A DNA stretch of 64,000 nucleotides from Marsupella aquatica. Its lineage: Eukaryota; Plantae; Marchantiophyta. The notes under the pieces are model-generated. The model searched no databases. It had not been told where the DNA came from and saw only the letters and a program-made list of their open reading frames with translations. Both the position numbers and the translations under genes were made by a program. Of this stretch, positions 110-51,205 are shown piece after piece. Positions within the stretch are counted from its first letter, which is position 1. Every line of letters starts with the position of its first letter. The stretch spans positions 25,009,233 through 25,073,232 of the forward strand of contig OZ316892.1 of the NCBI GenBank assembly GCA_973895155.1. Reading direction: 5' to 3'.

Positions 110-660
110 GTCAAGATTATTTGATAGAGTCGAGGTTGATGTTCTGTCAAGTGTTCTTCTCGATTGAGCCTTTGTTTATGTTCTGGCAACACGTTCTTTC
201 CACAAGAGTCATGCTTGCCATGTAACAAAATCTAAGTGTTCAAGCAGAGCCTAGTACTTTTCTTAAAGAGACATGATTAATAGAGTATTAGTTGATGTTC
301 TACCAAATGCTTCTTTTCTATGGAATAGTGGTTTATGTTATGACAACATTTATTTCCAATCAAGTCATGCCTCTTTTGTAATAGAGTTCAAGTGTTTAGA
401 CAAAATAAGTCTAGTAGTTTGAATAAAAGTCATGATTAATTTATAGTCTTGGTTTATTTATGGCAAACTTGGGCCAGAGCGGGCAGCAACATTGGGAACT
501 TGGGCCGGAGCGGCCAACAATAAGTGAAGAGTTTCAAAGCATAAACCCTAAGTCAATGACACAAAGTTGATCGGGCCAGAGTGGGTGACAAAATGATAAA
601 ATATTGTTTATGTCTTAGCAAACTTGGGCCAATGCAGACAAAACATTGGGGACTAGGACA
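110..660. repeat. Degenerate tandem repeat, period roughly 140-160 bp
   Basis: Recurring gtttatgtt(c/a)tg(g/a)caac-like, agtcatg and aacttgggcc(a/g)gag motifs at ~175, ~331, ~452 and ~607. Confidence 0.55.
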
Positions 661-3279
661 GGTAAGGCATGGAGCCCCGGGAAAATGGGAGAGCATTAAC
701 TTGACATAGATTTAATGCCTTGTGTTGTCTTAACTATGGACTCAAATAGATAGCTTTGGGAGCAATAATTGGAGCCGAATGAGAGCCCTCATAGCTGTCG
801 ATCCTCATTCCTGATGACAATGCACAATGGAATCACCCTTAGTTTACATATAGGGTAATGACACTTTAGTCTAGGGTTAATAATCTATAACCCTATGACC
901 AGAAAATGAGGAAATGAGGAAATGCTCACTAGCAAGAGGTTTTATGAGCTTTGTGTGAACAGTGAACAGGTTTCCAACTAGAACCCCAACCCAAAGAGTC
1001 ATTATCATAATATACCTGCCCCCGGAACAAGATTATGGGGCAAGATTTTGAGGGCAGTGGGTTATGGAAATGGTGGCTAGTAGAAAAGGTTATTCATGAG
1101 GAATTACTATGGCTACTTTTACTTTCCTGTACATTTGATTGACGTAACATCTCGGCGCCACCTTCTAGTGTACTCTTTCTGTCTGCTCTCTGGCGTGTTT
1201 GTTCGTGGAAGGTGGGCGCGGGCCCTTGGCTATGGCGCCCGTCATGCGTTGAGTAGGAGCTTGTCCATTGGGCCGACGACGCTGATTGCAACGCACGAGG
1301 AGGTCGTGGTGACCGAAAAGTAGAGGATGATGACGCGGAATCGCTTACTGATCGACACGATCGTTCTGTTTGTCAATTTGTCTTGAAGTGCTCGGAGTGT
1401 TTAATCGAAGAGCGAGAACCGACAAGCGGAGGCCGACTTGGTACAGACTCCAGAAATCCAATACGATTTCGCAAGTGGTGCCACCGATGAATCCCCGAAA
1501 TTGGCTGAAACGGATCGTGCGATTCACTGAGGTGCATTGGCCCCGCAGCAATTTGCATCGTAGGGCGTGAAAGGTTCGCTTTCGAAAGATCGATCCTGCG
1601 GTTGCGTTTCAGTCGTAGGCGCGAGAGCACTGAAATAGGCGCTATTGATAGGCAGCACAATGATGTATATGAGTATATCGCGTGGCTTGAAATTTGCAAA
1701 CTAATGATTATTGCAGTACTATTGTCGTCACACGATACCGATGATTGAGGAGATCAATCGAACCAAATTACCAAAGTGACGAGGATCTTATATTCTGCTT
1801 GGAAAAACAACAGCCAGGTCGACCTAGTTAGTTTGAAAATTCAAATTTGTGGAGAGCCGGTCCGACCGAGGTCGTCCTAGAAGAACGGGCAGCCGTTAGG
1901 GGTTGATGACGATGTTGTGAACTTGTGATCCTCATAACTTCCAAAGTGACTTTGCTACATAGTTTTGTCGTTTTACGTGAAGAAAATGTCGAATTTTTTT
2001 TCTTCGTATCGATACGGACAAACCAGCTTATCCTTCGCTGCGGAAGCAAATGCTTGCTAATAACTAAACTCTCGTTCGGGCTCCCTAACACTAGGCTAAC
2101 ACTAGCGCTTTCTCGTTTTTGTAACTATGGTTTTTTTTTTTTTTGCCTTGAAAACCGAAAGCAGGCCCATCCAACAGAGGATAGACGTCCTGCTTTGGAG
2201 CATGGACTATGGTTTTTGTAACTATGGTTTTTGTTATCTGTTGATATTCTCCACATACAATAGCTGTAATTTCACCAAGAAGCCTCAATTTCCTTAATCG
2301 CTTATCAAGGATGCTGATCTTGCAACACGATCGCTTCATTGTTTTCGTTGAACACGCTCACAGCGAGGAAGTTTTAAAATTGCAGCATATCGACTTCAAT
2401 CTGGTTGACCGTGGGCTTTGTCGAGAGACCTTTTGGCCTTCAAAGATTGTTGTAAGTACAGCATCAAGCTGAAGAGGGGCTGAAAAGAAGCTCAGAGTGG
2501 AATTGGACGTTCATGTGCTGTAATCTGGTGGACCCGGCGCTAGGATAGGACCGGTCTCTGCTCTGTCCTTTTCAGATCATTTACCTTGTAAGAAAGTCGA
2601 ATATCTTTTAGCGACCACAGCTTCAATTCCCATAACCCTCCACAATCTCCTTTGATTGATTGCCATTTTGTTTTCTATGATCTAACTATAGCAAAATCAA
2701 TATCACTTCGAGCGGCCGAATTTTTTACATTCTACTGTCATTGCATTAATGTATCTTGAAGTCGATGCTTCACTGTTCTCATCAGATGTAATCAAGTTCT
2801 GCAGCCGTTTCCTCGTCAGAAGTAACCTACCACCGAGAGCTCTCGAGTGAACTGTCTTGTAATGGATCGCGTCATTGTTCTAGTCAGGTACTGTTCCTCG
2901 ACAAAGTAATCTTTCAGTCTACAGCCTCTTCTTGTTCGTTTAAGTTAATCAAAGCTTGTAAGCAGGCTTGTAAGTACTGTAATTGTATTTGTGATTCAAG
3001 CGCTTTACAACTTTCTTCCGATACATAAATTCCTCATTACATATCGTCGTTTAGTCAGTCTCTTTATTGACTCTAAGCACAAAGATATCTTCAAGGCAAA
3101 AACGAAGAGCTTTTAGAGGACCTCTTCACTATTGTCTCAGATAATCTCCTCGCGACGATAATTATCATTGAGTTGACTATGCCATTCGATCTTCAACGTA
3201 TACCAGGTCCTTTCACCGTCACAATGGATGACACCTGAATTCCGAAGATACTCGCGAAGATATCGTTGCCTGACCTTGC

Positions 3280-3720
3280 TGTTGATTACAATAAGAGGAC
3301 TTAATTATTACTCTTGTGACCAAGTGCTTTGGTACAAAGTTGTTGAACTACCCTAGTTGTCAGCGTATCTCTCATTCGCTAACAACTTATTAATGAAGGC
3401 ATTCTCTTCAGTCAAACAACGTCATAAACTCGAGATGTGAAGAGTAGTGTTCGAATGCTTTGATAGTCGTTGGTTCTGCAAAGAGCGTTGGCCAAAAGAC
3501 TTCATCCTTACTCGTTGGAACTCGGCCTTGGTCTTTGACTCGACTACTGCTGCTGTGGCTGTGTACTTCGTCAAGGTGCCCTGCACGGAAGCGGTCAGAT
3601 GGATAGCCCGTACTAGTTGATAACGCCTGGACTCTTCGTTGATCGCGACTGTGGGATGTACCAAGGGGGGAGAGATAACATCCACATGCACGTTCGCTGA
3701 TCCTGCTGCAGGTTCAGTCC
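3280..3720 (-). mobile_element. Highly decayed Ty1/Copia pol remnant (RNase H region)
   Basis: The minus-strand translation gives 'ESRR...AAVVESKTKAEFQ' (compare D.RRSTSG...VALSTTEAEY) and, near 3310-3345, 'LCTKALGH' (compare AD.LTKAL). No LTR pair was found. Confidence 0.45.
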
Positions 3721-5185
3721 GGTTCTGGCACCAGCCATCGCAGGGTGTCTGTTATGCAGGAGCTCGCGTACAATGATGTTCAACTGCCTAAGCGCATAGA
3801 CTTGGTCATGAACAATGTCAGTCAGTGACTTTCCGACTCAGGTAAGTTAGCACGTCAGCGACTAAAGGTTCGACCGTAGTTAGTAAAGCGACTTGGTATA
3901 TATTCATGGCCAGTTACAAGCTAATCAGGTTCTGCTGCATTGCTGTCTCGATCGAACTACACTAAATGATTTTCAGACCTTGGAGCAACCTGCAACAAGA
4001 ATTTTCAGACCGACCTCGTACTTGGAGTGTAGTGGCAGGTAACCGATACACCTTATTTTCAGAGCAATCAGCTGACCTGCTCTGTACTGTGCCAAATTAC
4101 TATTCCCCCTGTGCGCTGAAGATACACCATGTGCAGCAAGCTGAGAGGACATCAGAAAGGTCGGCATCATCATAAATGGACAGAGTGTCGATAGCCAGGA
4201 TATACAAATTCATTAACTATTGCGCTCACAATGGAGGTCACGACGAGCTCGCTCTACTGTTGTTTTAGTACACATCAACGTCCAGTTCGATTTTCAGCCC
4301 CAAGCGTCATAGAGCAGTCAGCAGATTTTACAACGAAACATTCAAATGCTCTAAATCACGGCGATTCCATCTTTCGTTGTGTCTTTAGATACAGGGTAAC
4401 GACTCTGCATGATCCAAGTAAAAGAAAAAGAACGAGTACGCCGGGAATTCGAATTCATCTGTAAGATTTGATGCAATAACAGCTTTTAGCTAACAAGCAA
4501 AACTAAAGAACCAATTGCGTATCCATCATTGTGCCAGAGTAAAAACAATGCATATGACAAGTACGCGATGATGCGGGCATAGAATATCACATGTTGAAAG
4601 TTGTGGACCTGCATAATACTACGAAGGCAACAAGACGCATTGCCCTTCACATTATAACCAGGTGAAGCTGCTAACTATTGTACATGGAGAAACGTTTTTC
4701 TTTCTAAAATTTACTTATCCTGCAATAGCTCTACTGTACTCTACAAGTAGCGTGCGAACCTGTACAAGTCAAAGAGTAAGCTTAGTACATCATCCCCAAG
4801 AGACCTTCAAAGGGGACTGTACAAGTCAAGAGAGTCTATTTAGTACATGATCCCTGGCGAACCTTCAAATGGGGACCGTAATACTGCTCAAGGCCATGAA
4901 CTCATTTCCGTATGTCGATACTCGCGATTTTCACTGATTGCACCCTGGGATCGGGGAATCGCCATCTACCTACCTTTCATCTTTTCCAAATTTTAATAGA
5001 TCTGACATGTCCTATGCATGCTTGTCTCGCCACGGTCCGGAGAGCGCGCATTCATAAAGTTGATATTGATGGTCGCTCCAACACTAACATCTCAGCTTGT
5101 TACGCCCTAACGTAAAAACAATTCTTCTAGTCCATCGTTCCACTCTACAAGTTCATCGCTAATTAATAGTACAAGCCAGAAGGAC

Positions 5186-6763
5186 TTAAGTTGGTATTTC
5201 CAAACCGAGTAGTCTGGGCATGCATCGTCGTTTCCAGAGGGCCGCTTCAGTAGCAGGCTGAAGAATGACAGCAGATGGAGCACATTTTATGATGAGATTC
5301 GAATAAGAGATGGAATTGTACGCATACTTACTAGGGTTGATGCTATCATCATTTTGCTCTTTCCCTTCTATCTCTTCCTTCCACGATCTTTGATTTGCAG
5401 CCCCTTCGGGATGCTGCTGCGAGCGCACACGGATGTCGGGCAGTTTCTTTCCCGTAACGTGCTGGTAGAATCTCGTATCCCTGAATGATGGAGTTTTCGC
5501 CGGAAAGTCACCTGCTGCAAATCGGCTGAGGTCGATTTCACAGTTTTCACATTCAGTTTCTGATCGTTCCGATTTCGGCGACCTTGGAGAAGTTTCACCA
5601 GAACTCCATCCACAAACAAACCCAGCCTTAACCATAGACGATCCCAATTTCTGTTTCAAGAAATGATTGAGATATCGAATAGAATTTCTCTGGCTAGGGG
5701 ACTTAACTCCTTCGTCCTCCATCGTTTTCTCCTCCTCCACAACTCTTTTGCACCGCATCAATCTAGCCGAATTATTTACGCAACTAGGATCGAAGTAACT
5801 CAAATTCTCCTCCGAAGTGTTTCTGCCTGCCAGATCCAAATGCGGTATGTCATGGACCGGTATGTCAAAGGGTATCTGCTTGTTATGCAATTTCAAGGAG
5901 AACTCTTTTTGTAGTTTGAAAGATTCCTCTTTCTGTCGCTTGAAAGATTCTTCTTTCTGAACCTTGAAAGACTCCTCCTTTCGTAGCTTGAAGGACTCCA
6001 CGTTTTTCAGCCTAAACGACTCCTCCTTCTGCAACTTAAATGACTCTCCCTTGTGCAGCTTGAAGGACTGCCGTTTCTCAAGCATAGCTGTAGAGTAAGT
6101 CTTGCTGCTGATGTGCACAGAATGGGGAATTACTCCATCATTAATATCCATACGGGCCAAGTCCTCAGCGACCGCCTCGACCGCTTTTGCTGTCTTCACT
6201 TGCCTGTGTTTTACCTGTCCTATGCAGGACAATTGAGGTGATTGCGGCTCGCCCGTCTTCTCATTCACCCGGCTCGTGTCAACAGGAATTAAAGAGAAAA
6301 AGGTCCTTTGCGAACCGCCGGATGGATCGCAATTCGGAGACAAATGGATGTCTCTCTCAGCGACAACCGATTCTCCGAGGAAACAAGCCAGCAGAGGATG
6401 TCGAGAGTAAGCTAGGCTTCTTCGCCTGACGTTTGCCTTAAAGCCTTTCTGCGATGCTGACTGCCTCATTTTCGGACTGGCGGCTATCAAGAAATGTCTT
6501 CCGATGCTGAATGTTTCGCACACAACTCTCGCGTCGCGCCTACCACTACCCATTTGAGTGGGAAAGCTCCTAACCTCATCACGCCTCCCGCTGCCCATTT
6601 GAGTGGGGAAGCCACTGAACTCGTCACGCTTTGCACTCACCATGTGGGTTGGAAAGTTGCCCACCTCTTCGTCTGAATGAAACAAGTTGAGGTCCAGGAA
6701 GAAATGAGGATCACTTTCTGCCCTTCGGTGAAATACCCGTGAGTCCTCCGAGGACGCGTCCAT
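5186..6763 (-). CDS. Plant-specific protein of unknown function, 525 aa, single exon, resembling the At1g76070/syringolide-induced 14-1-1-like family
   Basis: Uninterrupted 525-aa ORF with EPQSPQLSCIGQVK (family motif EPxSPKxSCIGQ) and a C-terminal ALWKRR motif. It contains internal tandem peptide repeats. Confidence 0.8.
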   Translation of the reverse strand: MDASSEDSRVFHRRAESDPHFFLDLNLFHSDEEVGNFPTHMVSAKRDEFSGFPTQMGSGRRDEVRSFPTQMGSGRRDARVVCETFSIGRHFLIAASPKMRQSASQKGFKANVRRRSLAYSRHPLLACFLGESVVAERDIHLSPNCDPSGGSQRTFFSLIPVDTSRVNEKTGEPQSPQLSCIGQVKHRQVKTAKAVEAVAEDLARMDINDGVIPHSVHISSKTYSTAMLEKRQSFKLHKGESFKLQKEESFRLKNVESFKLRKEESFKVQKEESFKRQKEESFKLQKEFSLKLHNKQIPFDIPVHDIPHLDLAGRNTSEENLSYFDPSCVNNSARLMRCKRVVEEEKTMEDEGVKSPSQRNSIRYLNHFLKQKLGSSMVKAGFVCGWSSGETSPRSPKSERSETECENCEIDLSRFAAGDFPAKTPSFRDTRFYQHVTGKKLPDIRVRSQQHPEGAANQRSWKEEIEGKEQNDDSINPSKYAYNSISYSNLIIKCAPSAVILQPATEAALWKRRCMPRLLGLEIPT

Positions 6764-15649: not shown

Positions 15650-16283
15650 ATGGGCCATTATTGACCATTGAAAAATGACCTATTTTTCAACAAAGCATCG
15701 TAGATACCCAGGAAGCTCTACATGAGCCAAGTCATGGGGCCCTGTATTCCTGCCCGTATTTCCAGGACAACAGACCTAGGGGTCTAACGTAATGGTCGAC
15801 TCAAGTTTATACTTCTATTTTGCGCTGGTTGTCAACCATGGAAAATGAACCATTTTTATAACATATCACCATAGGAGCCCAAAAAAGTACACATGAGCTC
15901 GATCATGAGTTCACATATGTTCTGGCCAACAGATCCAAGGGTTTAAAGCTATGACCAACTCAAGTTTATACTTGTAGTTTTGGGTCAATTACCAATCATG
16001 GAAAAATAAATAAATTTATATTTGTAATTCAAGTTATATTTAAGTTGGAAAATTAATCCAAAATTAATTAATCATGGAAAAATAAATTAGTCCAAAATTA
16101 ATTATATTTGTAATTTAAGTTTATATTTGTAATTCTGGGTCGATTGCCAATCGTGGAAAATATACCTTTTTCTTACAAATCACCATAGAAGCCTAGGAAA
16201 ATTCATGTGAGCCCAATCATGGGCCGCATGTTTCTTGGCTAAGGGATCCAAGGATCTAAAGTCATGTTGTTTCAAATTTATAC
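15650..16283. repeat. Degenerate ~160-170-bp tandem repeat array, left part, interrupted by the P-like transposon
   Basis: Units share caagtttatactt.ta.ttt...ca(a/t)c(a/g)tggaaaa...aaatcacca(t)ag...catgagc...catgggg. The array resumes in register at 25448. Confidence 0.8.
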
Positions 16284-16879
16284 CCCGGGGTCCTCACTTA
16301 TTTCCTTCCGACCCATCACGCGCGAATAAGTATAGGGTTTTTTAATTCAATTTTGCAGAATACTTAAGAAGTTTTGTTGAAGAACTTTAGGGGTTGAGAA
16401 ATACATATTGCAACTTAGAATTATAATAGGGGTGCTAAAAACCTCACTTCTTCAAATTAAGTTGTTAGTTTAAGATAGGGCATTTTAAGAGAGGCCATAT
16501 ATGAGGAACACGTGTCAGTTTTTAATTGGTACACGTGGCACTTCCTTATGTACATTAATAGGTTGTAGGGTTTGGGGGAAAATGGGGGTTCTGTGGTGCG
16601 GTGAGACTTTGAGGGAAAATTTTGAATTATGTGGGCGGGAGGTACTGGTGGCTTGGTGGACCATGATGGGGAAGGGAGGGGTTAGGGTAGGTGGGAGGGT
16701 GGGAAGTGTCGGGGCCTTTAGGGCCATGCATTCGATCCATCCATCCATCCATTAGTTGGGCATCCAATGGTTGAGCGTTGCCTGGCTGTTTAGGGCAAAT
16801 GTGAGACCGTTGGAGAGGATTGCGCCTTGTGAACGCTACGGAGTGTGCAGGGTGAGCCGTGGACCGAGGGGCTAGGTGT

Positions 16880-18000
16880 TGCTTTGATCTTTTTCGAAGG
16901 AAATGCATGCTGAAACTAGCCGGGCTGCTGCAATCGTGATCGATGTGAGCTGGGGGTCGGGGTCTAGGCATTGCTTCGAGCATTTCTTGAAGGAAAGTTT
17001 ACACACAGACTGGGCACTACGGATCTATTGATGGAAGGTGGCAGCTTCGAGTGTAATTGAGGGACGTCGCGAGTGTGACTAAGGTCGCAGCTGAAGTTGA
17101 TCGGGACTAGATTGAAAGTGATTGGGCGACTGCGGGCACTGTGGGTGTGATCAAGTTGGCTGCTGCTGGGATTGATGTGCAAACTTCAATCACAGCCGCA
17201 ACATTGATTCAAGTTGTTTTGAAGGAATTTTTTACACACAAGCTGGGCAAGTCTGCGGTTGTGATAGAGGTGTAGCTGAAGTTGGGGCTGAGTGAAGTTG
17301 GCTGCGCGAATGTGGGTGTTGCAACTTAGTTTGATGAAGGCGCGCTGTACATGAACAAGTGAAAAATGCGCAGGGTGAGATGGGGGTCGAGGCTGTGCAC
17401 TACCGCAAACGTTTTTGAGAGGAATGCACACAGATTGGGTGTTGCAGCTGCGATTGAGACCTTGGGCAATATGTGCAATGGAGTGAGATCGGGGTGCGCT
17501 GCTGCTGTGATGTCCAAGTGAGGTTGGGGTACGCTGCTACTGCGATTGAGTTGGTAGGGGTGCATTGGAGCTGCTACTGCGATTGTTGATTGAAGTTTGG
17601 GTGATCAGTCTGTTGCTGAGTTGCGATTGAGTCACGGTTTACTGTTGCTGTGATTGATCAAGCGGAGGTCAGGGTGTGCTATTGCGCTGCGTTGCTTGCA
17701 AATCCGCATCAAATCAAGATTGAGTGGAGGTCGGGGTGTGCTGCTGTATTGCGCTGCATTGCTGGCTGTGCTCAAGTGAAGGTCGAGTGAAGATTGAGTG
17801 AGTTTCTGTTGCTGTGATTGAGTCGAGGTGGGGTGATACAAGCTTCGCTGTGTTGCTGGCTGCAAACAAGTTCATAGAAGGTGTGGTTGAGTGGTTTGCT
17901 GGTGCTGCAATTGAGTGGAGGTGGGCTGATTTGAGCTACGCTGATCAAGCTCCGCCCTGAAGTCCAAGTGCAAGTAAGCTGCCTGATCAAGCTCTGCTCT
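16880..18000. repeat. G/T-rich degenerate repeats in the 5' region of the transposon
   Basis: Recurrent tttgaaggaa...cacaca.a(c/t)tggg, gggggtcg(g/a)gg and gctgctactgcgattg motifs. The short minus-strand ORFs here are low-complexity artefacts. Confidence 0.55.
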
Positions 18001-19347
18001 AGGCTCGCCTGGGTGACTGTGTTGTGTCATGCTTTGACTGCATCTGGTGGAGTTCTCACTCACTTTCCTACTACTTTAATTTGATCTTTAGACTACATTG
18101 TAGTCAATGCTTGGTTTCTTTGCTAGATAGTGCTGTAATCTTTGTGTCTCGTTTGCTCTCAAGTTCCCGATTGACTTTGCGTGCAGGAAGCCCTATGTAC
18201 TGTTCTTTTGTTTAGAAGCCAGCTATTTGATGCAACTATTCTAGTGATTTTGGCATGGCCAAAGGAGGACTGGCCTGAATGCCCACAATAAGTATTATAG
18301 CTTAGGGTGGGCGTAGTTCTTCTTCCACCCTCTGGAGTACTGTATGGGGATTCTATTTGCACATGGTTCTTTCTGCATGGGACTGACTATATCATTCTTC
18401 CCAGAGTTGCTTTTGACTGTGAATAGCTAATCATTCATAGAACAATGCAGTGTTTAGAGCTCTCAAATAATCCATGATATATGTACCTCCCCCTCTTTTG
18501 CAAGCACCCTGACTACATATTCAAGTGAAAAGAAATAGTACTTTACCATGTTCAACTATGCATTATTCGACTGAACTAGAAATAGACAACTGAAGGAAGA
18601 ATCTAATAAGAATTAGATTAGTTGCTGAAAATAAGTCAAGAATCAAAAGCTTTCATTGACATTCAGTTGGCAATGTGTTGTGCAGCTTGTTCAAGAAGAG
18701 GACAGTGCTTGGTCTAGGGTCTGTGTAATTTTAGGACCTGGAATCAGTTCTTGCCAAGGTACGTTAAGTTGTGGCTCTTGTGTTGACAATGTTATTTCTT
18801 GGTTTATGCTCAGTTCTCCATGACTCTGCAATTGTTTACTGTCTGTACAACTAAGCTCTTTTGTACTCCTTTGTTGTGTCTGGTCTTAGTTATTGGATGT
18901 TTTATGGTATACTTCATTTGCCTCTCTTAAGTCCTTAGTTTATGCATTTAGTCTCCTATTTGCTCTCTACCAGGGAATGAATTTCCATTGGGAATGAACC
19001 TGGCCTCGGTTACACTCCTCGAGCTCAGTCACCTACATTTCTGATCAGTTTAAAATATGTTCTGAACTCTTCTTGCAGGATGGATTGGTTTCCTGATTGG
19101 TTTAGAGTGTAGGGGAAGTATTTCAGAAGCTTCAGCAATATACGTTCAAATCCAAAAATTGTGTACAGAGCAGACAATCAAGGTAACTAATTATGCTTAT
19201 CTTTAAGATGCTCAATTTGTAGTTGCACCAATAACTATGAATGTGCTGTTCAATGCTGAATGGATATCGAGGCAGGGGTTGAAATTGGATGCTAAGTGAA
19301 TGGAGCATTTGTTGTGCACAGGTAAAATCATCATCAGACAAGCTGAG

Positions 19348-20013
19348 ATGGCTTTAGATGTACCACGGATTGACATATTTTCCCATAAGGAGCACCACCG
19401 CATGGATCCCCCTTGTTGTTTCTTCTGTGATGAGACAGATGATGTGGTATTTTGTGATGGTCCTTGTAGTAGACATTTTCACTTCGTTGGTGGAGAAGGT
19501 ATGCAGGGGGCCATTTGCACTCCTGTCACATTGCCTGAAAACAATGACTGGAGGGCACCCTGGGTTTGTCAACTGTGTGCTGCCGGTAGAGCTAGATGCT
19601 TTGCTTGTGGACTCATTGGCAGATTTGAAAATCCCACAACACAAGAATCTCTTGTGCTCCACTGTGCCCACCCTCATTGCTTTTCTCATTACCACCCTGG
19701 CTGCCTTAGGGTGCTACTTATGGTTGGGGCACTGCCTCATAGGTCTCATCCAGCAAGTCCTAAAAACCTAATGTGCCCAAGGCATTTTTGTGACTACTGT
19801 AAAGTCTACAAGGATGGGATTAAAAACTTTGTACAGTGTCGCAGATGCCCTCGCAGTTGGTGTCATGATGAGACACCTGGGGGGGTGAAACACCTTAGGA
19901 GGTGTGTGAAGGGTAGGGACCATTGGGATGTGGAAGGGTGGCATTTTATTTATTGTCACAGGCATGCAATACCTGAGGGGGAATTGGTTCCTGTGCAGCC
20001 TCATACCTCTTAG
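19348..20013 (+). CDS. Multi-PHD zinc-finger protein (NSD/EDM2-type tandem PHD and variant PHD), transposon-borne
   Basis: Open ORF (track 19300-20013). The likely start is MALDVP at 19348, because a candidate splice acceptor ttgtgcacag ends at 19320. Motifs: CFFC..DDVVFCDGPCSRHFH..C...W.CQLC, then RCFAC...LHCAHPHCFSHYHPGC, then CPRHFCDYC...VQCRRCPRSWC...IYCHRH, the Cys/His spacing of NSD-family PHD arrays. Confidence 0.85.
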   Translation: MALDVPRIDIFSHKEHHRMDPPCCFFCDETDDVVFCDGPCSRHFHFVGGEGMQGAICTPVTLPENNDWRAPWVCQLCAAGRARCFACGLIGRFENPTTQESLVLHCAHPHCFSHYHPGCLRVLLMVGALPHRSHPASPKNLMCPRHFCDYCKVYKDGIKNFVQCRRCPRSWCHDETPGGVKHLRRCVKGRDHWDVEGWHFIYCHRHAIPEGELVPVQPHTS

Positions 20014-20288
20014 AGGCTGTGAGAAATATTGCTAGAATTTCTTTGCTAGAGGCCTTATAACATGAGTAATCACATGTGAACAATGATAACAAGATTTTGT
20101 TTTTGTTGGTCTCCAAATTTGGAGATCAAAAGCTTTTTTGAACTATTTTGGAGTAATCTCTAATACTCTTTGTATTGTTTTGTTCACTATGCTATATGGC
20201 AGGTTCAGTCTATATGGGAGGTTCTTTACGTGACTGTGATTGTATTTAGAACCCTTGATCACTCTCTAACTTGAACAAATTGATTGAA

Positions 20289-23200
20289 ATGGCTGCCCAG
20301 TTTGTAAAATTTACTTCACAAAAAAAGGGATGTGGTCATTGATGGGAAAGATGAAGAACCTATAGCTGTGTTGGCCTTCAAAGAAGGACAAACTTTAGCT
20401 GATTTTCGAAGTTGAATTCCTGATTTGGTTGATTTTGATTTTGATTTCTGGGATTATAGACTTCCTGGTCGCATGAAGGTCAAGAGTGAGAAAATGACTG
20501 AGTTGTCTGAATTGGATGGGAAAGTTGCTGTCATTGAACAAATAGGATCCTTGCCGACTGGTAGAACACAGTTTCCATCAGTATCTCCTGCTGTCACCCA
20601 ATCGGTTGCAGTGGACTCTTCACAAGGTGAACAGCTTCAAGAAGCTCCCCCTATGAGAGCTTCTTTTGAGTCTCTTCTCATGTCTCAGGCGGCTGTCAAA
20701 GTCTGGAATGATGAATATATAAGACTAGAGAAGTGGATTCACAAGAATGGTTATAAAGCTCATAATTGGAGAATTCGAACTTGGGATGAAGGACAGGATG
20801 TGAGAGGCCATCTGGAGTGTCTTGAATGTAGAGTGATCTATGGGAGGGCAAACAATTCACAAGATAAGAAGTCAGTTGCTAATTTGTTCAGCAATTTTAA
20901 GACCAAGCACCTTGCCTTTGCTAAACACAAAGACAATTACTGCAGGAGAATGGGCATTGCTATGACTGGGGTCAAGCCCTCAGATCTTGCACAAAAGCCT
21001 GAGTTTGATTATGAGGGGGCCATAGCAACTAGCCTAGAGATAGTCCAGACTCTGAATGTTGAGTGTGGAGGTGATGATGAGCTATTTCATGTGCCCCCTG
21101 TGCCTGGTTTAGCCAATAATGCAAACAAGTGGTTCCTGTATAAGGTCAGGTGTAAGGTTTGTGGGGCAATCATGGATCTGGTTTGTAAGAAGGGGACTTT
21201 GGATCACAACCTGAGGACACACTTGGTCAGTCGGGGTCACCTGGATGTAGTTGAAGCCAGAGAGAATACTGCTGAACTTGCATTGAGATCTGGAAAGAGG
21301 GGCAGACCAAGGAAGCCAGATGAGAGGGATCAACATCCTTCCCAAAATTCAATTTTAAAATTCTTCAAGGAGGATGCTTCCAATGCAAGCAGCAGCTCTG
21401 GCACAGGTGGGTCTGTAGACATCGATATGGGCCTAAGTTTGCTCTGTTGGGGAATATGGGATGAATATGTAGAGTGGAAGAATGTGAAGTATGTTGTGAA
21501 GGGTATCTTGCAGGATCAGCATGGAGGACATGTATGGAATGTGAATGCCACAGTCTCTGTTGATGTCTACAATCCTAATACAAATTCTATTGTACATATA
21601 GAAGGACTATTTAGGCATAAACAGTGTTGTAGGCTGTCCTTGTATGGTGGAGGGTTTCTGAACTTAACTTGCAGTAGATGTCATGCTATAACACTAGAAG
21701 ATGACTTTCGTGGGCGGGTGCACAGGGAAGCGGAGGCTTTAGCAAAGAGAGGGGAAAGAAGCACAGAGGGTGGTTTGAATGCACGTTACTTGACACGTCC
21801 AGAGTTGCCCACATAGATGCATGGTCTCAATGTCAAAAGAAGAAAAGAGGGATGGTTGTTGGCATTACAAAACTCAGAAAGTGTGTGCCCTTAGTACTAG
21901 GAAGAGAAAATTGCAAGAACTGTTAGGAGTAGCTGCAGACAGAAAAGATTTGAGACTTTTCCTAAGGAGTATAGTCAATGGACATAGGAATGGTGCATTT
22001 GGTGGAAAAGAAGGTCTGTGGGATTTTCTGAAAGATGTAGGTAGAAATTTGGAGAGAAGTGCAAGGGGGTTTCGTTACAGTCAGAAAACAAAAGCCATAG
22101 CTCAGGCTATGTTTCAATATGGGGGCCGGTAGGTGGCCCATGTTTTTGCAAGGAACTTAGCTGGGCCAAGCCTGAAGACACTAAAACGAGATAGAGCAAA
22201 ATTTGTTCAATTTTGTGCTGGAATTAGGCCAGAAACATTCAAGGAGGTGGCTTGAATTCTGTCTGCTGCAAAGGAGATATTGGGAATTGAAGGAGATGTA
22301 CCTGTCATGCTTGCAGAGGATGAAACCAGGATCAAGGAAAGCCCAAGGTATGTTTGCATATTATAGCACATAATGATGCAATTGAAGGTGAAGATTATTT
22401 GTGATGCATAGTTTTACCAATTCTTTGAAATTGACTTGGTTTTCATTGGGCTCTCTGCAGGTGGGAGGCCAAATATGACACTTTGATTGGTTTTTGTGGC
22501 CATAAGGATGGGCATACCTGTGAATTTGGATTAGAAATTCTTGTAGGTGATGGTGAGGATGGCTATAACAAGATTGTAAATACATTTGAGGATTTTAACA
22601 AAGGAATGTATGCTAGAGTTGTCATTGTGAATCCATTGCATGTTGGAATGCCAAAGTTGGCCTTCTGTGCTATATCAACATGTAACAAGTTCAAGGCAGA
22701 ATGGGTTAGAGAGCACTGGAAGCAATTAAAAGAATCTTGGGATCTACATTGCAGAGACTCTGTAGGTCCTTTGCTTGGGCATGCTAGTGATGGTGATGCA
22801 AGGCGCAGGAAATTGATGTTAGAAGATTACAGAGGAGCTAATGGGTCTTACCCTAGATTTTCTGTAGGGTGGGAAGGATGGCCTTACTCAGTTGCCATAT
22901 TGCCTAATGGGGACCTGTATGGTTTTGGTGATCAAGACCAGCCTCACAATGGGAAAAAACTTATTAACCCACTAGATCGAGTGTCCTCAATAATGGCACT
23001 TGGAGACCAACATGCTTCCCTGTTTCATGTCTGTAATGTGTACAATAACTATCCAATCCATCAACATGGATTGAATTGGGATGATGTGAACAGATTGGAC
23101 CGTCAAAACTGGGCTGGTCCCCAAAGGATAGCATCAAAAAAGGTGCGTGACTGTTTAGCAGATTTGCATGGAAGAATTGATATGTTGCATGAACGATCCA

Positions 23201-24868
23201 AGTTTGGGGACAGAGTTGTATCTGCAGATCTGTGCAGACTATATTGACATTTTCTACTCCCAGAGACATGACCTGAGGACTAGAGTGAAGCTGGCAGGTA
23301 AAGTTTCTTGGTTCTTTCGATTGTGGAGGTTGTGATTGAGGTATGGTGATCATGCTGTAGGTGGAAATGTTGCTTCACATACAGAGAGAAATATGATATC
23401 AATCCAAGCTTTTCATGATGTTAACATGTCATGTCAGTTTATTGTATTGCTTATATGTGCATTTCGTGATAAGTTTTCTCACTTGTGTATTCCATTTTAT
23501 GAGTTAGGTTCTGATTGTTGTGAGATATTTTTCAGCAAAGTAGGTGGAATGAGTGGCCACAAGAGGAATTATGATTTTGGCTCCTTGCTGGACAGTGCTG
23601 TAGGGTTAAATCATCTTGCTGGATTAGAATGTGGACCAGAGGGCTTGAAAATAGCTCGATCACATAAAAAGCAAGATCATGTATGGGCCAAGCTTCATCC
23701 TTTACTTGAAGGTGAAGATGCACCTAATCTTTTTGATTACTCTGAAGTGCAAACTAATGAGTTGGTGGTTGCAGCCTTGAAAGAAGGTTTTGAAGAAGCA
23801 AGAGAGTTTCTTAGAAGGTTACAAATGTCTCCTAGAAGTGATCTGCCAGCAGCAAGAAAGCGATGGTGGACTCACCCTTGGGATGTGGAAGTTCAGACAT
23901 GGCCAAATTCAGCTATAATAGCAGAGGCAGTTATTGTTGACGATTCTGAAGAGCATGTAGAGCACAGATCTCCAATTGGACCTCGTCCAGAAGGAGATTT
24001 TCATGAATTTGAAGACCCTGAGGAAGATCTAAATCGAATTGATGCATGGTTGGCAGATGAGCTAACCATTCCTGATGATGTTTTGCAGGATGGGGTTGAG
24101 TTAGACATACCAGAAACTCATTCTGTGGAGGTAGATACTTTGGGGCATGAGGTTCGTCATGTGCTGTCTTCTGTTGTAGCTGAGTTTACACAGTCTTTTC
24201 AGAGCCCTCTACAGGAAAAGAAGAAGGTTTTGCCTACAGTTACATATGAGGGTAGAACAATTTACAAATCAACTTTGGTGAGTCAATTAGTGGGCAACCC
24301 TCATTTGTCTAAAGATAGGCTGACAAGAGTGAAGCAAGTGGCATACTATAATCTTGGTAAGAGGAAACAATGTGATCCGAATACTGTGACTTGTTTTGTT
24401 GATGTTGGGAGTGATTGTGGAGTAGCATTTGAAAGTGCTAATGATGCAGGCCCTTCTACAAGATCAAAAAAGGGGAAAGGTAAGGGAAGAGGTAACTCTA
24501 GGATCCAAGAACCAGTAGTGTAAGTAAAGAAAGAATTTTGGCTTGGTCGGATTATGATGATGAGACAAAAAGTTAAGGGACAATGGACTAGAGTGAGATC
24601 TGCTATTGATTTGCTTGACAGACCAACACCTCCTCATGGACACGTAGGGAGTATTTGTCAGTTCTTGTTCAATTGGTATAAGCCAACAAGCTCAAGCAAA
24701 GTTGAATTCACTTATGATACAACTGATTTACAATGGATTGATATAGAAATGGTGATGACTAATGTTACTCTAACCATGAAACAAGGGATTGGATTAGTGT
24801 ATGTGTTAGATCGAGTTGATAAACAAGCTTTGGATACTTATTTGGAGACCATGTCTAGAGTTGAATGA
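20289..24868 (+). pseudogene. Decayed P-element/THAP9-like transposase with one intron (22348-22460)
   Basis: The reconstructed frame gives GPSLKTLKR (compare LPSxRTL), catalytic D in MLAEDET (GAT 22319-22321), ASDGD (22789), DQPHNGKKLINPL (DxxH), DRQNWAGPQRI (compare DKMNV..A.QL) and LGSDCCEIFFS (E at 22522+1000=23522; compare QDxLExFF). The GT-AG intron joins ...ESPR|WEAKYDTLIGFCG in frame. In-frame stops lie at 20413, 22130, 22253, 23333 and 24521, with frameshifts near 20325, 21810 and 23200. Confidence 0.88.
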
Positions 24869-24940
24869 TTTTCATGCATCAATAGTCATGGTAGTGGTTT
24901 TAGTATGTATAGGGGATAGGTTAGGGGAATAGGCTAGGGG

Positions 24941-25001
24941 GTGGCAGATTTGGATACTTAAGCTTCTTGCTCAATCAGGGGTTCAATTCCCCTCTGCCAC
25001 A
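24941..25001 (+). ncRNA. tRNA-like (mascRNA/t-element-like) structure downstream of the transposase
   Basis: Perfect 7-bp acceptor stem GTGGCAG/CTGCCAC (24941-24947/24994-25000) abutting a 5-bp T-stem AGGGG/CCCCT with a canonical TTCAATT T-loop. There is a GG-containing reduced D region and a short stem-loop TTAAGC-TTCTT-GCTCAA. Expression is not shown. Confidence 0.55.
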
Positions 25002-25447
25002 CTCACCATTCAGATTCTTCACTCAATTCCTTTTTGGTGTACCTACCTTTCACATCAGACAAGCACAACAGATTGCAATATGAATAACTCATACTGTATA
25101 TTGTTGAAGCTTCTACTAGAATTGGTATTCTTAGTGGAAGCATCAACACTATATACTATCAGTTTTCCATGAGATATGGATGCCTAAGGAGCACATTAGG
25201 GTTCAAATAAGCTTGACGAAGACCCAAATAAGGTGCGCATTTGAATGAACTTTTCTTTTCTTACTAAGGGGTGTTTAATTCACAACAAAACTTTACTTAA
25301 CTATTTTTAGGGGTCAAAATGTTAGGATTTGGAATTCTTATAAGTATGATAGGGAAGGGGAAAAAAAAATTACTTAATAAGTTAGGGGTGCAAGGGTCCA
25401 AAACGTCGAGCGTGATATGGGGGTCTCTGTATACTGAGGCCCCCGTG

Positions 25448-25610
25448 ATTTATACTTGTAGTTCTAGACCCATTGTCGATCGTGGGAAAATGAATTATTT
25501 TCCAACAAATCATCGTAGGGACCCGGGAAGCTTCACATGAGCCTCATGATGGGGCCATATATTTTTTGGCCATTGGACCTATGGATCTAAAGTTATGGTC
25601 AATTCAAACT
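25448..25610. repeat. Continuation of the ~160-bp tandem array to the right of the transposon
   Basis: atttatacttgtagttct...tcgtgggaaaatgaattattttccaacaaatcatcgtagg...cacatgagcc matches the units at 15802, 15961 and 16145. Confidence 0.8.
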
Positions 25611-28600
25611 CAACAAGAGTCAACCTGCCTCAAGGGACGCGTGTGGACCGAGGAGGTTGTCTGGACCAGAGTGGGTTATTAGGCATTAAGTTCTAGGAAT
25701 TAACCTTCTAGATGAGGCCAAATTGCAAAGGTTTTTTACTGTTGTCATTTTGATTAGGTCTTGGGAGGTTAACTAAGTGTATATTTTTTGGTATCACGTA
25801 CAATTCTAACCTAATACAAATAGACCTATTTCATAAAAAAATATATTCCAAGAATTTTTCATTTTTAATACTAAGAACTTGTTTTATAAAAGATATATAT
25901 TAGAGAATATTCTATAAATATGAGCTTATAATATCTCTTTTTGCCTCCTACGCTTTTTTAAGTTAGATTTTGGATCGCACGTGGTTCCTATGATTTTTGA
26001 TAGTCTACCCCCCAAGAGCTAAGTGGCAGGGCCCATGGACCTTTGAAGGGGGCGCCGGGGGGGGGGGGCAAAGATAAGGAACCAAAGCTGGTTTGGGGAT
26101 CATGACATGTCTCCAAAATCATATATGATGGGGGTAATTCTCTTGAGTTTGAGCTTGAGCTGATCATAATCAACAAAGATACATTGTTTCTAGTTTTAAA
26201 GTTGAAACATGCATAACTCAACAACCAAATCTCCGTTGAAGGAGTACTTGGGCTCATTGGAAATATAATAAAGAAAAGTAACTCATGATGCTCTTGAATT
26301 GTGAATTGGATAGTTTGGTTTTGAGGCTTACAATGAAGGCAATTCCTCTTGTTGTATTTGGTTTGCATGGGAAAGTAGAACCAAACAGACTATGGGGGCT
26401 GCCATTGAGATGTAAGCCCAGATGAATGCATAGTGAGAGCTTGAGCAGAACATGGTTTTGTTGAGATTGAGGTGGCCAAGGGTTAGGAATTGAGTGGTCT
26501 TGACGTGTTACTACAAGCTTGTGACAAACTGAACTTTGGGGCATGGGCATGTCGTGGAGGCAGGGCGATCAACTGCTGACAAGTACAAAGTGAGGAAATG
26601 TGGGTGGCACCCGAAAGAGAGTCTATTCTGGATGAACAATTGATGCTAATCTTAGCTTTTGCTTATAGCAAGCCCGTGTGGGCCTGATAGACTCTATTTG
26701 CTAACGTACTTACTAGTGATTGGTGAGCATGATGCAATGCTCTTGGAAGTTTTAAGATCACTTATTGGTTGGTGGGTTGCTTGTGTAGATAGTAGGGACC
26801 GTTGAACGACCATCATGGTCAAGAGGGCGAGTGAAACTTTACATGAGAGTGGTCGCAAATGACAAAGAGTATAGTCAAAGAATGTTTGCCACAATGTTCT
26901 GTTTTAGTGGAAGGTTTGATTTGTTTCAAGGTTTAGAGCCAAATTTGGACGTGCACGTGGTGAGAGATCCACCACTACTTTCAACAAAATTAATGTTAGT
27001 AACCCTAATTCTTACAAAGTAGCACTAATTATGGTGAACAACATAGTTCACCTGGTGGGAAGTGCTCCAATGCCCAACCTACTCAGGGTGTTCACTAAAC
27101 TTATTATAAGCATTGTACTCAATTGGGGTATAACACCCATGCCTGAACTACTTGGAGCATCCTTCACAAACGTGAAGCATTCATTGATTTAAAACATTTG
27201 ACCATTTTTGTGCTCATAAAAAATGGAGGAATTGATCTAAAAAAATTCAAACTTTGTGAGGTAATCGATAGAATATAGTCATTAGCAAAAGTGAAGAGTC
27301 CATCCAGAAAAGGTTACTATTTTTTTGTGTACATTGACTGATGACTGTATCCTGTCCACGGGCATGGGTAGAACAAACCCTTGGTTAATCCAGACTAATA
27401 TTCCTTATTTTTAAGATCTTATGATGGGAGACATGTTTGAGAAGATCACACCACTTGCGAAGCTCTTTGGATAAGGATAAGGAGTTCTCACCATAAGGCA
27501 TGTTTCATTTTCTGTCTTGTACTTTTCCATTAATGATTTTCATTGTAGACCTATCTCGAGACCTATTCGCAAAGGTCATGATTGGCTTAGTGCAAATATC
27601 TACAAAATTTTTCAAAAAAGAACCTATCCGCCCAACTTGCTGAACCAAGTATGACTGGTGACTATTTTTTGACAAAAAGTGACACAACATGATAAAAGCT
27701 CAGCACAAATGGAAAGATATGCATGAAAACTTCAACAAACGGATAAGAAGTATGAGGTTACGTATAGCCCTAGTTTCCTTGGAGGTCAAATATTAATTCT
27801 TCAGTAGTCATACTATTGTGACTTCAGGAAGTTATTGGGTGAGTGGGAAAGGGACCTTAAATGTCAATCGTCACTTGCCCATGGTGCTAGCATTGGGGCT
27901 AACATTGTGGAATTTAATATTGGTTATCACAATAGGATTAGCCCAATAAGCATGTGACGCATGATTATTATGGGGGCATGTGGAGCCAAGGAAATGTTGG
28001 AGCAAGACCTAGGCAGCAGTGTTGCGATAGTCAGGCCATAGCACCATGCAGTGCTGCTAAACATTCCTCAGGATGGCGAGCAAGGGAGGGATGCAAGGTT
28101 GCAGCGTGGGCAAAGTGAGGCAGTGTTACTTTCTCCCACCCATTTTGCTCCTCTCCCTCCCCACACGGGCATTGGGCAGGGAGGCAGATCTTCATGCGGA
28201 GACCAAGGCACGGCCTGAGCAGGCTGTGTACGCTGGGCCAGACAAGCCAGCGTGCAGGATGGCAAGCGCAATGTGCAACGACAGGGTGAGAGGAGTCAAG
28301 TGGGTAGGCTTTAGGAGGGGTCTGCTGGTGATCCAATGGGGCAGGAGAAAACAGGCACATCACCTAACGGCTTCCTGCCCACAATTCCATTTGTAAACAG
28401 AATATGGAGGAGTTCTCTCAAAATTGCATATTATAGTGATTGATGTATACTGATGTATAATTATGTTGATGTCTCTTTGAATAGTTTTTAATTTTTTTTT
28501 AAAAATAAAGGGGAAATCTGTGAAACCCCATAGGGATCAGTGAGTCACAACTTTTGAACCCAAGATCTATGAATCACTACTCAAGTGAGCTATCACATAG

Positions 28601-31930: not shown

Positions 31931-32784
31931 CCAGTGGGGGAAGTTCACTATTGATGGGTAGGGCCTAGTTGTGAACTCCCCTTTTTATTCATGGAGCTTT
32001 ACCCATTCTGTTTGGTGCTTACTACGGATTTTGTTCTTTTGCCATTGGTGGGGACTCTGACCCTTTCTGGCAGTTTTGCTTTCTTAGGGTTTCTTTCTGG
32101 GTTGTCACTTTTAGTGGATCTCCTGCCTTTAGGATCTTGTCTCCAGGTTTGGCCCTCTTTATCCTATGGCAGTGTGATTTATTCCCACTTGTGAGTTGCA
32201 GCTTTGTGTGTGTTTTTGACAAATAGAGATTACTTTGACATGAAAAGAACGTTAAAGTAATGATAGGACTGACGAATGTAATCTGGCCCATGAACCAACG
32301 TATGGAATGTATGAAATCTGGAAGAAGGCACTCGAGTTTCAGTAAGGTGGTCAAGTTGGGTGAGTCATGGGTTACTTTGACTCAAGTTGGGGGAGAGTTG
32401 AGTAGAATTAGAGACCCCTTCACATCGGTGTGAGTGACATAGAGTGAACTGTGACCACAGTGACAATGAACCACACAGCACAAGTACTTTGGGTTTGCCA
32501 ACCAATAAATCCCCAACTGTGATGGTTCCCAAAATTTGAGTTTAATTGTAACTATAGGCTCATAAATTCACATATTTTTTAGTTTTCACAACGTGCTAGA
32601 GGAGTAGATAAGCTATACTTTCATCAAAGTGACAATGAATTTTTGACCATTTTGGTTGAATTATTCATCATGAATGTGGAGGGGTAAATTCTATCAGATT
32701 AATTTTCATTGTGTTATTATGAAATATAGGGGCTTTTGTTATTTTAGGTCTCCTCCTTCTCTACTTGCCTTGCAAGTTAGAAAT

Positions 32785-33958
32785 TAATCCATGGACCCCC
32801 ATGTTATTTTAGAAGCAGTTATCTAGAAACTGAAGCCTAGATGGACCCTCCAAATCTAAAGAAAAAAAATTCAAAAATGGACAAGTCAATGTTTGACACT
32901 TGAAACAGTTGCCAAACTTATTAAGGCAACCATAATTAACATCAATCGCAAAACCAGTTGCAATGTGAACTATTGTTTAATGTGTGGGTAACTTAATAGT
33001 CCACTTCAGCAAAACGGTGCTTGACTATTTCCTCCATGGTACCGAAGGGATGCTGGATGCACTCAAGTTGCATAGAAAGTAATCACTTTTCAATTCCTAC
33101 ATGCACATAGACGAAGAGAGAGAAGTCATCAGTGTCATCAAATCACTAACTTTGCATAATAGTTTAAGACAAAAAGTTTCATGGAAACAAATCTCCAATT
33201 GTGTTATTTGGAATCAGTCAAAAGTTAGAGAAATTTAGAAATTCATGACCACTTTATTGATAAAATCTCCCAATGTTACACTCATTGTAAAGCTAGACAA
33301 CATTGGAAACTTATAATCTCCTCAGAACTCAACTAAATCTATCAATGTTAAGTTCATTAAAAAGCTAAGAAATTCTAAGATTCATAATCTCCTTAGTACT
33401 AGATAAAATTTGTCAATTTTAAATTCATTCTCATGGAAGGGGTCAACATTTGAGGGGTTGTACAACAAAAGATTTCTATTCACGTTAGAGATTATGAAAT
33501 CATGGGTAAAGTCTAATTTTCAAATTATTTACTCAATTCTTTCCGAATGGTGACAATGCTAAGCTCATCAGGACCGTCTCTTCAAGATCTTTCCAATGCC
33601 ATATTATACATGAGTTTTCGTTGTGATTTGACTCAGCAATGTCAAATCAAAAATTCATACTGGGAAAATTTTATGTTTTGAATAAAATTAAAATATAAAT
33701 AAAACCGTTACTGGGAACAGTTTTACCTCAATCTTTTTGTCTTTTGATTTACATGTCAATTTTTTTTTCATTTTTTAACATTTTTTTTACAATTTTTTAA
33801 ACAATTTTTTACGACATGGCATCTCAGTTTTTACAACAAACTTGTCACAAACACGAATGCAAAAGTTAATTTTATCCAAAAATAAATCTCTTCCTGTTTG
33901 CAGCATGTCATGATGATGTGGCATGCTGTGGAGCTAGGAATTTTACAAAGGACCCCTA
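32785..33958 (+). repeat. AT-rich dispersed repeat, copy 1 (probable non-autonomous TE)
   Basis: Collinear with the reverse complement of 50393-51205, for example ggacccccatgttattttaga...tctagaaactgaagcct and actggga.cagttttacctcaatc.tttt gtcttttgattt. Confidence 0.85.
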
Positions 33959-50392: not shown

Positions 50393-51205
50393 GGGGGGTC
50401 CTTTCCAAAATTCCTGGCGTCACATCATCATGGCACGTTGTAAACAGGAAGAGACTTGTTTTTGGATATAATTAATTTCTGCATTCGTGTTTGTGGCAAC
50501 TTTGCTATAAAATTGGGACTCCATGCCGTAAGTAAAAAAGAATGTAAAAAAATTGACATGCAAATCAAAAGACAAAATGATTGAGGTAAAACTGCTCCCA
50601 GTAACAGTTTTATTTATATTTTGATTTTATTCAAAACATAAAATTTTCCCGGAAGTAATTTTTCATTTGACATTGTTGAGTCAAATCATAATGAAAACTC
50701 ATGTATAATATGACTTTGGAAAGAAATTGAAGAGATGGTCGTAATGAGCTCAGCATTGTCACCATTCAATAAGAATTGAGTAAGTAATTTGAAAAATAGA
50801 TTTTACCCGTGATTTCATAATATCTAACGTGAATAGAAATCTTTGTTGTAAACCCCTTCCATGAGAATGAACCTACAATTGACATATTTTATCGAGTAAT
50901 AAAGAGATTATGAATTTTAAAAATTCTTTAGCTTTTTAATGAATATTGATAGATTTAGTTGAGTTTTGAGAAGATTATAAGTTTCCAATGTTCTCTAGCT
51001 TTCCAATGAGTGTGACAATAGTTCATACTGCAACTGATTTTGTGATTGATGTTAATTATGGTTGTCTTGGTAAGCTTGGCAACTGTTTCAAGTGTCAATA
51101 AACATTGACTTGTCCATTTTTGAATTTTTTTTCTTTAGAATTGGAGGTCCATTTAGGCTTCAGTTTCTAGATAACTACCTCTAAAATAACATGGGGGTCC
51201 ACTAA
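50393..51205 (-). repeat. AT-rich dispersed repeat, copy 2, inverted relative to 32785-33958 and lacking ~300 internal bp
   Basis: Reverse-complement match to copy 1, with a deletion junction near 51016. Confidence 0.85.

Follow-up and report, generated by a model that had tools for sequence, protein, structure and literature searches.

The transposon and its surroundings

The window (the whole 64-kb stretch of DNA that was analysed) contains a DNA transposon in which a decayed transposase gene is followed by a G-rich tract and a tRNA mimic (Table 1). The right end of this element is backed by a fall in contig depth and by loose ends at 25445 in sequencing runs X1-X4. The transposon splits one unit of an array of ~155-160-bp repeats (70-78% alike), which extends over 15650-16275 and 25448-25610. 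Elsewhere in the window we encountered a single-ORF gene of the RCC1 family (53349-54905, minus strand), RUG3/UVR8-like according to the source names, whose product is 83% identical to a protein of Calypogeia fissa and at most 61% identical to the other matches listed, which makes a leafy liverwort the likely source of the window. The window also contains a 525-aa ORF (5186-6763, minus strand) with internal repeats of 24 nt and 45 nt and no Pfam match, and a ~1-kb repeat in two inverted copies (32782-33920 and 50421-51211), which are ~85-90% alike and lie 16.5 kb apart.

Table 1. Coordinates of the transposon, its tRNA mimic and their component parts within the window
Feature	Position	Strand	Remarks
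Whole transposon, 9,164 bp	16284..25447	+	Imperfect terminal inverted repeats (11/13 first bases match); based on ends and target duplication
Left 8-bp target site duplication	16276..16283	.	ATTTATAC; based on sequence
Right 8-bp target site duplication	25448..25455	.	ATTTATAC; based on sequence
PHD-finger ORF within element	19300..20013	+	Pfam PHD_NSD, E 1e-7
Decayed P-element-like transposase gene, ~1,500 aa	20289..24868	+	Start codon and intron (~22349-22460) inferred
G-rich TAGG(G) repeat tract	24910..24940	+	Possible G-quadruplex; conserved block in most, not all, families
tRNA mimic, 61 nt	24941..25001	+	No encoded CCA; based on base-pairing, fold, Rfam scan and conservation
Acceptor stem, 5' strand	24941..24947	+	Partner 24994-25000; overlaps A-box-like stretch 24942-24953
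D-like linker, 10 nt	24948..24957	+	GG at 24952-24953; 24955-24957 variable across copies
Anticodon-equivalent arm	24958..24974	+	Variable 5-nt loop, no anticodon; A at 24960 in the window
T-arm, also B-box-like stretch	24977..24993	+	Based on pairing, Rfam scan and constancy in copies

The gene named as a transposase in the earlier note aligns over ~20335-24860 to ~1,500-aa proteins of liverworts and other records. The copy in the window is a pseudogene with in-frame stops at 22130, 22253, 23333 and 24521 and changes of frame near 21800 and 23200, and therefore yields no intact protein. A Pfam scan of the transposase matched no family, THAP included, and no sequence-level match was obtained in the PDB. 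When the predicted structure of a relative (P0001, mean pLDDT 73) was submitted to Foldseek, the only two matches with E <0.001 were the Drosophila P transposase entries 6p5a and 6pe2 (E 3e-4 and 5.5e-4, probability 1.00), with an identity of 11-13% and a TM-score, by query, of 0.28-0.30. On this structural comparison the host element appears to be P-element-like, and we do not file it as P proper. It shares with the P superfamily an 8-bp target duplication, terminal inverted repeats and, apparently, DDE spacing, but differs in the ~1,500-aa length of the transposase, the lack of a THAP match, the additional PHD ORF and ends of the form C(A/C/T)CGGGG. P elements produce 8-bp target duplications, and the THAP domain is described as absent from plants (PMC7776569). 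The PHD ORF has no match within 30 related metagenome loci; it may represent cargo that reads chromatin, or else one portion of a fusion produced by splicing.

The motif TAGGG occurs in the element 24 times on the plus strand and three times on the minus strand, clustered near both ends, where it possibly marks sites for the transposase or a host factor. An imperfect hairpin of ~70 nt (25094-25164) lies 3' of the mimic, with weak matches to miRNA models that fall far below threshold, and a joint in contigs of X1 and X2 omits 25136-25202.

Structure of the tRNA mimic

The base-pairing claimed in the earlier note was confirmed, and the coordinates given there are exact. The acceptor stem forms seven of seven Watson-Crick pairs and the T-stem (24977-24981 with 24989-24993) five of five, with a TTCAATT loop closed by G-C; the GG of the reduced D region and the start of the mimic 72 nt beyond the transposase TGA codon (24866-24868) are likewise as described. 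The hairpin at 24958-24963/24969-24974 does form five of six pairs around a 5-nt loop in the window, as stated, but this is not the form of the family, in which related copies have six of six. The layout comprises a 7-bp acceptor, a 10-nt linker, a 17-nt arm, a 2-nt link (24975-24976) and a 17-nt T-arm, followed by the discriminator base A25001, and positions 8 and 10 of the mimic are A and T.

The predicted fold of the mimic has an energy of -21.6 kcal/mol (z -3.34), and none of 200 shuffled sequences folded equally well; G at 24960 completes the arm and lowers the energy to -27.1 kcal/mol. The minimum-energy fold contains an eighth acceptor pair (A24948-T24993) that replaces the first pair of the T-stem, and so the register is ambiguous. 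A descriptor of the T-arm plus acceptor gave a single match in the 64-kb window, as compared with matches in 2 of 500 shuffled windows when G-U pairs were allowed and in 0 of 500 with Watson-Crick pairs only. With the G-rich leader included and the trailer omitted, the predicted probability of acceptor pairing is 0.33; with the trailer it is 0.91-1.0, and the leader G's are then predicted to be paired beside the putative RNase P cut site. The leader tract has a G4Hunter score of 1.8, which is within the top 0.11% of window positions (there are 19 peaks of at least 1.5 in the window), and ViennaRNA placed no quadruplex on the leader alone, so that the tract gives at most a hint of a G-quadruplex. 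An interpretation of the TAGG(G) tract as a telomere repeat finds no support in the passages of PMC9827991 consulted.

The earlier note had also proposed comparison with Rfam models. The mascRNA-menRNA model (RF01684) scores 23.6 bits (E 0.038) on the window copy, as against a gathering threshold of 42.5, and the mimic is not a member of this family; the tRNA model (RF00005) reaches 21.4 bits on the same copy against a threshold of 29. The Rfam E-values for the mimic (0.04-0.12) refer to a search space of 1 kb (24500-25500). ARAGORN found no tRNA gene in the mimic, and an assignment as a tRNA gene was rejected on the grounds of this result, the 21.4-bit score and the arm loop being the most variable part. 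An Arg(UCU) anticodon arm was likewise rejected as an interpretation of the arm in view of the 5-nt loop and its variable bases. A minus-strand match to the Rfam Plastid-ycf2 model (25.1 versus 65.7 bits) represents the T-arm in reverse.

Conservation among related copies

Two sets of related contigs were examined. The wide set comprises contigs of runs X1-X4 (two organism labels, two studies) aligned on 24600-25700, and possibly includes the source of the window itself, as X2, X3 and X4 carry the right junction with 0 differences. The narrow set comprises contigs of X3, X5, X10 and X14 (X3 together with organisms C, D and F) aligned on 24895-25012. X10 is represented by two contigs of depth 4-5 and was excluded as independent support, and X14 is the most diverged run.

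The earlier note would have abandoned its reading had the structure been lost from other copies; we observed that the mimic is kept as an island across them. In each of the four runs X1-X4 the summed contig depth over 24970-25006, which is a rough sign only and gives no copy number, amounts to 0.85-1.5 times the maximum at the end of the transposase coding region, 3.4-165 times the minimum in the upstream UTR and 3.6-18 times the minimum downstream. In six of the 32 pieces listed for these runs, a stretch of 31 or more coding bases continues past the stop codon into the mimic, with 2-19 differences. In X14 the depth is 12 before 24910, 380 in the G-tract, ~890 in the T-arm and not more than 101 after 25003. 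The G-tract shows insertions of repeat units and is missing in one family, and some contigs (X1 record 2 and X14 records) match the G-tract and mimic only, their flanks being unrelated.

At position 24960, all of the aligned depth of runs X1-X5 and of X10 carries G, as does 89% of that of X14; the A found in the window is a mutant, and the arm of the family is a perfect 6 bp. The loop of the arm is changed in X14 at 24965 (34% of depth) and 24966 (62%), and 24955-24957 of the linker in 12-32%, whereas change in the T-arm does not exceed 1.5% and the GG is unaltered among the X14 rows listed. Compensatory change, which the earlier note had suggested looking for, was found at one arm pair, while any acceptor covariation is hidden in the tables. 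In X14 record 8 the change 24963 C>T is accompanied by 24969 G>A, which converts C-G to U-A; this is the sole compensatory pair observed, its two halves being tied to one record through equal depth. X14 record 3 has a U-G wobble alone at the same pair, and in one X14 record the pair is broken at 24969. Within the 5' strand of the acceptor, GTGACGG, GTGACAG and GTGGTAG occur in loose ends, together with changes at 24945-24947, those at 24946-24947 representing 3.6% and 7.6% of X14 depth and also occurring in one contig of X5. Some of these variants are wobble-compatible, whereas GTGACGG, GTGACAG and the changes at 24946-24947 break pairs unless compensated. The variant tables appear to list changes at least ~31 letters from an aligned end, so that 24994-25000 is hidden, and families whose 5' strand is unaligned are missing from them, which flatters conservation there. 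Judged from these sequences, the pattern of variation suggests a fit to the RNA fold.

Similarity between copies ends at the discriminator base. All six of the 3' loose ends listed in the narrow set (for which 12 of 31 loose ends are listed) lie at 25000-25003, as does one of the wide set, and none of those listed at this boundary in the narrow set has an encoded CCA. A joint in X4 omits 25002-25076 and leaves the mimic whole. From the copies compared, the 61-nt block is a conserved part of the 3' UTR in a lineage of P-like transposons, probably those of leafy liverworts.

Comparison with known systems

Crystal structures of menRNA reveal a 7-bp acceptor, a 10-nt D region, a 17-nt arm and a 17-nt T-arm, and two G's of the D-loop form an elbow that is read by RNase P and also by RNase Z (PMC11693755). 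The mimic shares with menRNA (NEAT1/MEN beta) and mascRNA (MALAT1) a length of ~60 nt, a 7-bp acceptor on a 5-bp T-stem with a consensus T-loop, a 10-nt D region containing GG (10-11 nt and two conserved G's in the family), a 6-bp arm with a 5-nt loop (3-5 nt in the family) and the lack of both an anticodon and an encoded CCA. It also appears to lie within a longer transcript near the 3' end, a position that is read from the DNA in the present case. It differs in having 2 extra nt before the T-stem, in lacking the G8/G10 D-stem triples and in belonging to the gene of a plant DNA transposon rather than to a vertebrate lncRNA. Rfam detected no upstream triple helix within 24500-25500, where the G-rich tract and the transposase gene are found instead. 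The structural likeness put forward in the earlier note thus gains support from the conserved island, the menRNA-like sizes of the domains and the one compensatory pair; it is most likely convergent.

Several plant systems offer further parallels. Plant mitochondrial t-elements, which are cut by PRORP1 and RNase Z, are tRNA-like structures in the flanks of mRNAs that set transcript ends (PMC3858429), but they are organellar, single-locus and attached to host genes, whereas the mimic is nuclear, multi-copy and carried by a transposon, and its cleavage is predicted. An assignment as a mitochondrial t-element was rejected in view of the nuclear-type context (the RCC1-family gene and a transposon with a target duplication). 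The ENE and dENE of plant and fungal transposons (for example hAT TWIFB1) resemble the mimic as structured RNA elements behind a DNA transposase gene, and the ENE governs the fate of the transcript 3' end (PMC13541005); ENEs clamp the poly(A) tail, whereas the mimic would create an end through cleavage. Arabidopsis GUT15 is described (PMC6152437) as a nuclear tRNA-like RNA derived from a Pol II transcript without Pol III synthesis of its own. It is intronic and confined to a single lncRNA gene, in contrast to a mimic located in a transposon 3' UTR. A tRNA mimic located in the 3' UTR of a DNA transposon was not described in the literature that we searched, which did not extend to most subscription papers.

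A possible role in 3'-end formation

We propose that nuclear protein-only RNase P (PRORP) and RNase Z use the mimic as a substrate, which would give the transposase transcript a non-standard 3' end, a reading that by analogy with known substrates has in our estimation an even chance of being correct. It is advanced because the mimic matches the domain sizes of menRNA, the requirements of PRORP3 and the cutting of t-elements by PRORP1. Arabidopsis nuclear PRORP3 depends on the acceptor stem and the T-arm, on a bulge where the two join and on U54, U55, C56, R57 and A58, whereas it can do without the anticodon arm (PMC4797305); the acceptor, T-arm, junction bulge and T-loop bases are all present in the mimic. 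Loss of the D domain lowers the rate of PRORP3 about fivefold and raises its KM ~60-fold, and the enzyme also needs a single-stranded leader (PMC4797305). PRORP1 cuts mitochondrial t-elements (PMC3858429).

In this scheme intact copies of the family would be transcribed by Pol II through the mimic, the GG would contact the T-loop to form an elbow, and the transcript would be cut by PRORP at 24940/24941 and by RNase Z after 25001. In place of a poly(A) tail the message would then have the G-rich tract at its end, and a ~61-nt RNA would be freed that is open to CCA addition. The cut may stabilise the message, with a G-rich cap in place of the MALAT1 triple helix; alternatively, it may limit the message as a form of self-restraint. 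The predicted pairing of the leader near the cut site, where PRORP3 needs a single strand, and the acceptor pairing probability of 0.33 with leader but no trailer count against a PRORP cut, and the lack of G8/G10 triples and, in one family, of the G-tract counts against the RNase P/RNase Z reading as a whole. Only tentatively, and with rather more doubt than confidence, we extend this proposal to suggest that P-like liverwort transposons independently built a MALAT1-style 3'-end cassette, in which a G-rich cap and a menRNA-shaped mimic, possibly from a tRNA-Leu-like gene, would give rise upon PRORP cleavage to a non-polyadenylated mRNA and a CCA-tagged small RNA.

Alternative explanations

It is unlikely that the block is instead a tRNA-derived Pol III promoter, with an A-box at 24942-24953 and a B-box at ~24980-24990, which would direct synthesis of a small RNA or form a TFIIIC boundary near the right end, the fold being secondary or serving for trimming. 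The 5' part of the mimic does resemble the D-arm or A-box of class II tRNAs, the T-arm is its most constant part, and a T5 run is located at 25031. Conversely, the A-box overlaps the acceptor strand and is off tRNA position 8 of the fold, its G10 is lost in the GTGACGG and GTGACAG variants (24942-24953 and the variants being read against the usual A-box and B-box consensus), and the spacing of the boxes in the window copy is only ~26 nt. A DNA box also leaves the 7-bp acceptor match and the compensatory pair unexplained. As for termination, the X4 joint removes the T5 run, and four T's are present in the first 30 letters of none of the seven 3' loose ends listed, a weak test given that the run in the window starts 30 nt out. 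With a pattern of the arm and T-arm, 36 matches at 35 bacterial loci were retrieved, and ARAGORN assigns 29 of the loci to tRNA-Leu; these loci are ordinary tRNAs, and the likeness of arm and T-arm is circular as the pattern required both. The D-arm of these tRNA-Leu genes, which lies outside the pattern, resembles 24941-24955 with a local score of 6-9 in 16 of 18 distinct sequences, a score without a random baseline. This likeness keeps alive both a Pol III promoter and the view, to which we attach a decidedly low probability, that a short tRNA-derived repeat (SINE-like or a captured tRNA fragment) entered the ancestor or spreads by itself and does no job for the transposon. At the level of sequence, descent from a class II tRNA, with loss of the anticodon arm and re-pairing of the ends, is suggested. 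Such a passenger, possibly derived from a tRNA-Leu-like gene without an anticodon arm, would fit the several contigs that share only the G-tract and mimic between unrelated flanks and the absence of the mimic from 30 fetched relatives, but it should decay like the adjoining UTR, which the mimic does not. Nor does its 3' acceptor strand resemble tRNA-Leu genes; it complements its own 5' strand. Depth over the mimic tracks that of the transposase end in four of four runs and is not far above it, and the 3' loose ends listed are mutually unrelated and are not poly(A). The earlier note had named a separate insertion with its own target duplication as a finding that would overturn its reading; neither target duplication nor tail flanks the mimic, and there is no second copy within the window.

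Some plant RNA viruses end in tRNA-like structures, and tRNA-like mobility signals exist. There is a small chance that the mimic similarly stays on the message, RNase Z alone cutting after 25001 and CCA being added, so as to provide a viral-style tRNA-like end for stability, translation or cell-to-cell movement, with RNase P blocked by the G-rich leader. The sharp 3' boundary at the discriminator, the lack of an encoded CCA and the predicted partial pairing of the leader beside the RNase P site are in keeping with this. It is opposed by the lack of an anticodon for charging, by the family in which the G-tract is missing, and by the Arabidopsis tRNA-snoRNA precursor, in which the RNase P cut must come before that of RNase Z (PMC3858429). 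Finally, it is highly improbable that the structure is a chance hairpin without function. The modest Rfam E-values on 1 kb and the dead state of the transposon copy in the window would suit this explanation, but the descriptor occurs in only 2 of 500 shuffles, and a chance origin is largely refuted because an island of conservation and structure-shaped variation are found in runs of several organisms.

To our knowledge, 3' ends of Pol II transcripts made by RNase P are represented mainly by two vertebrate lncRNAs and, in plants, by mitochondrial t-elements. If cleavage of the mimic by PRORP and RNase Z is correct, this would be a DNA transposon with an RNase P-made mRNA end and a mascRNA-type system beyond vertebrates, and a multi-copy mimic on a protein-coding transposon message would show that the mascRNA fold evolved convergently. 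Hundreds of natural variants would become available for defining the needs of PRORP, and a novel means by which a transposon might evade or tune poly(A)-based surveillance would be suggested. Should the block instead be a Pol III box or a passenger repeat, it would constitute a modest addition to the annotation of liverwort repeats.

Distant relatives

The descriptor of T-arm plus acceptor had no match in the 30 metagenome relatives (165,072 bases), ARAGORN found no gene in them, and Rfam gave no tRNA or mascRNA match at E up to 10 in 15 of the 30 loci. The right-terminus motif is reached in eight loci (L001-L005, L014, L015 and L022), so that their whole 3' region is covered, and L001 contains a complete relative (192-6287) with inverted ends and an 8-bp duplication. 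In a tree of 30 rows, from which rows with <150 aligned residues were left out, 12 metagenome loci fall within a 22-row clade (98/94) and the window lies apart. The mimic is not needed by the superfamily, because it is absent from all 30 fetched relatives; judging by these sequences, it belongs to the lineage of the window and not to the superfamily as a whole. Among viral contigs, neither relatives of the transposase nor matches to two patterns of the mimic were found, and blastn of the mimic against phages gave weak T-arm matches only (best E 0.3).

The P-like family, whose ends read C(A/C/T)CGGGG and whose ~1,500-aa transposases have no Pfam match, is little annotated; its relatives are found in liverworts, a fern and metagenome loci that include the eight named above. 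One of these, L014, resembles a deletion derivative of 1.36 kb.
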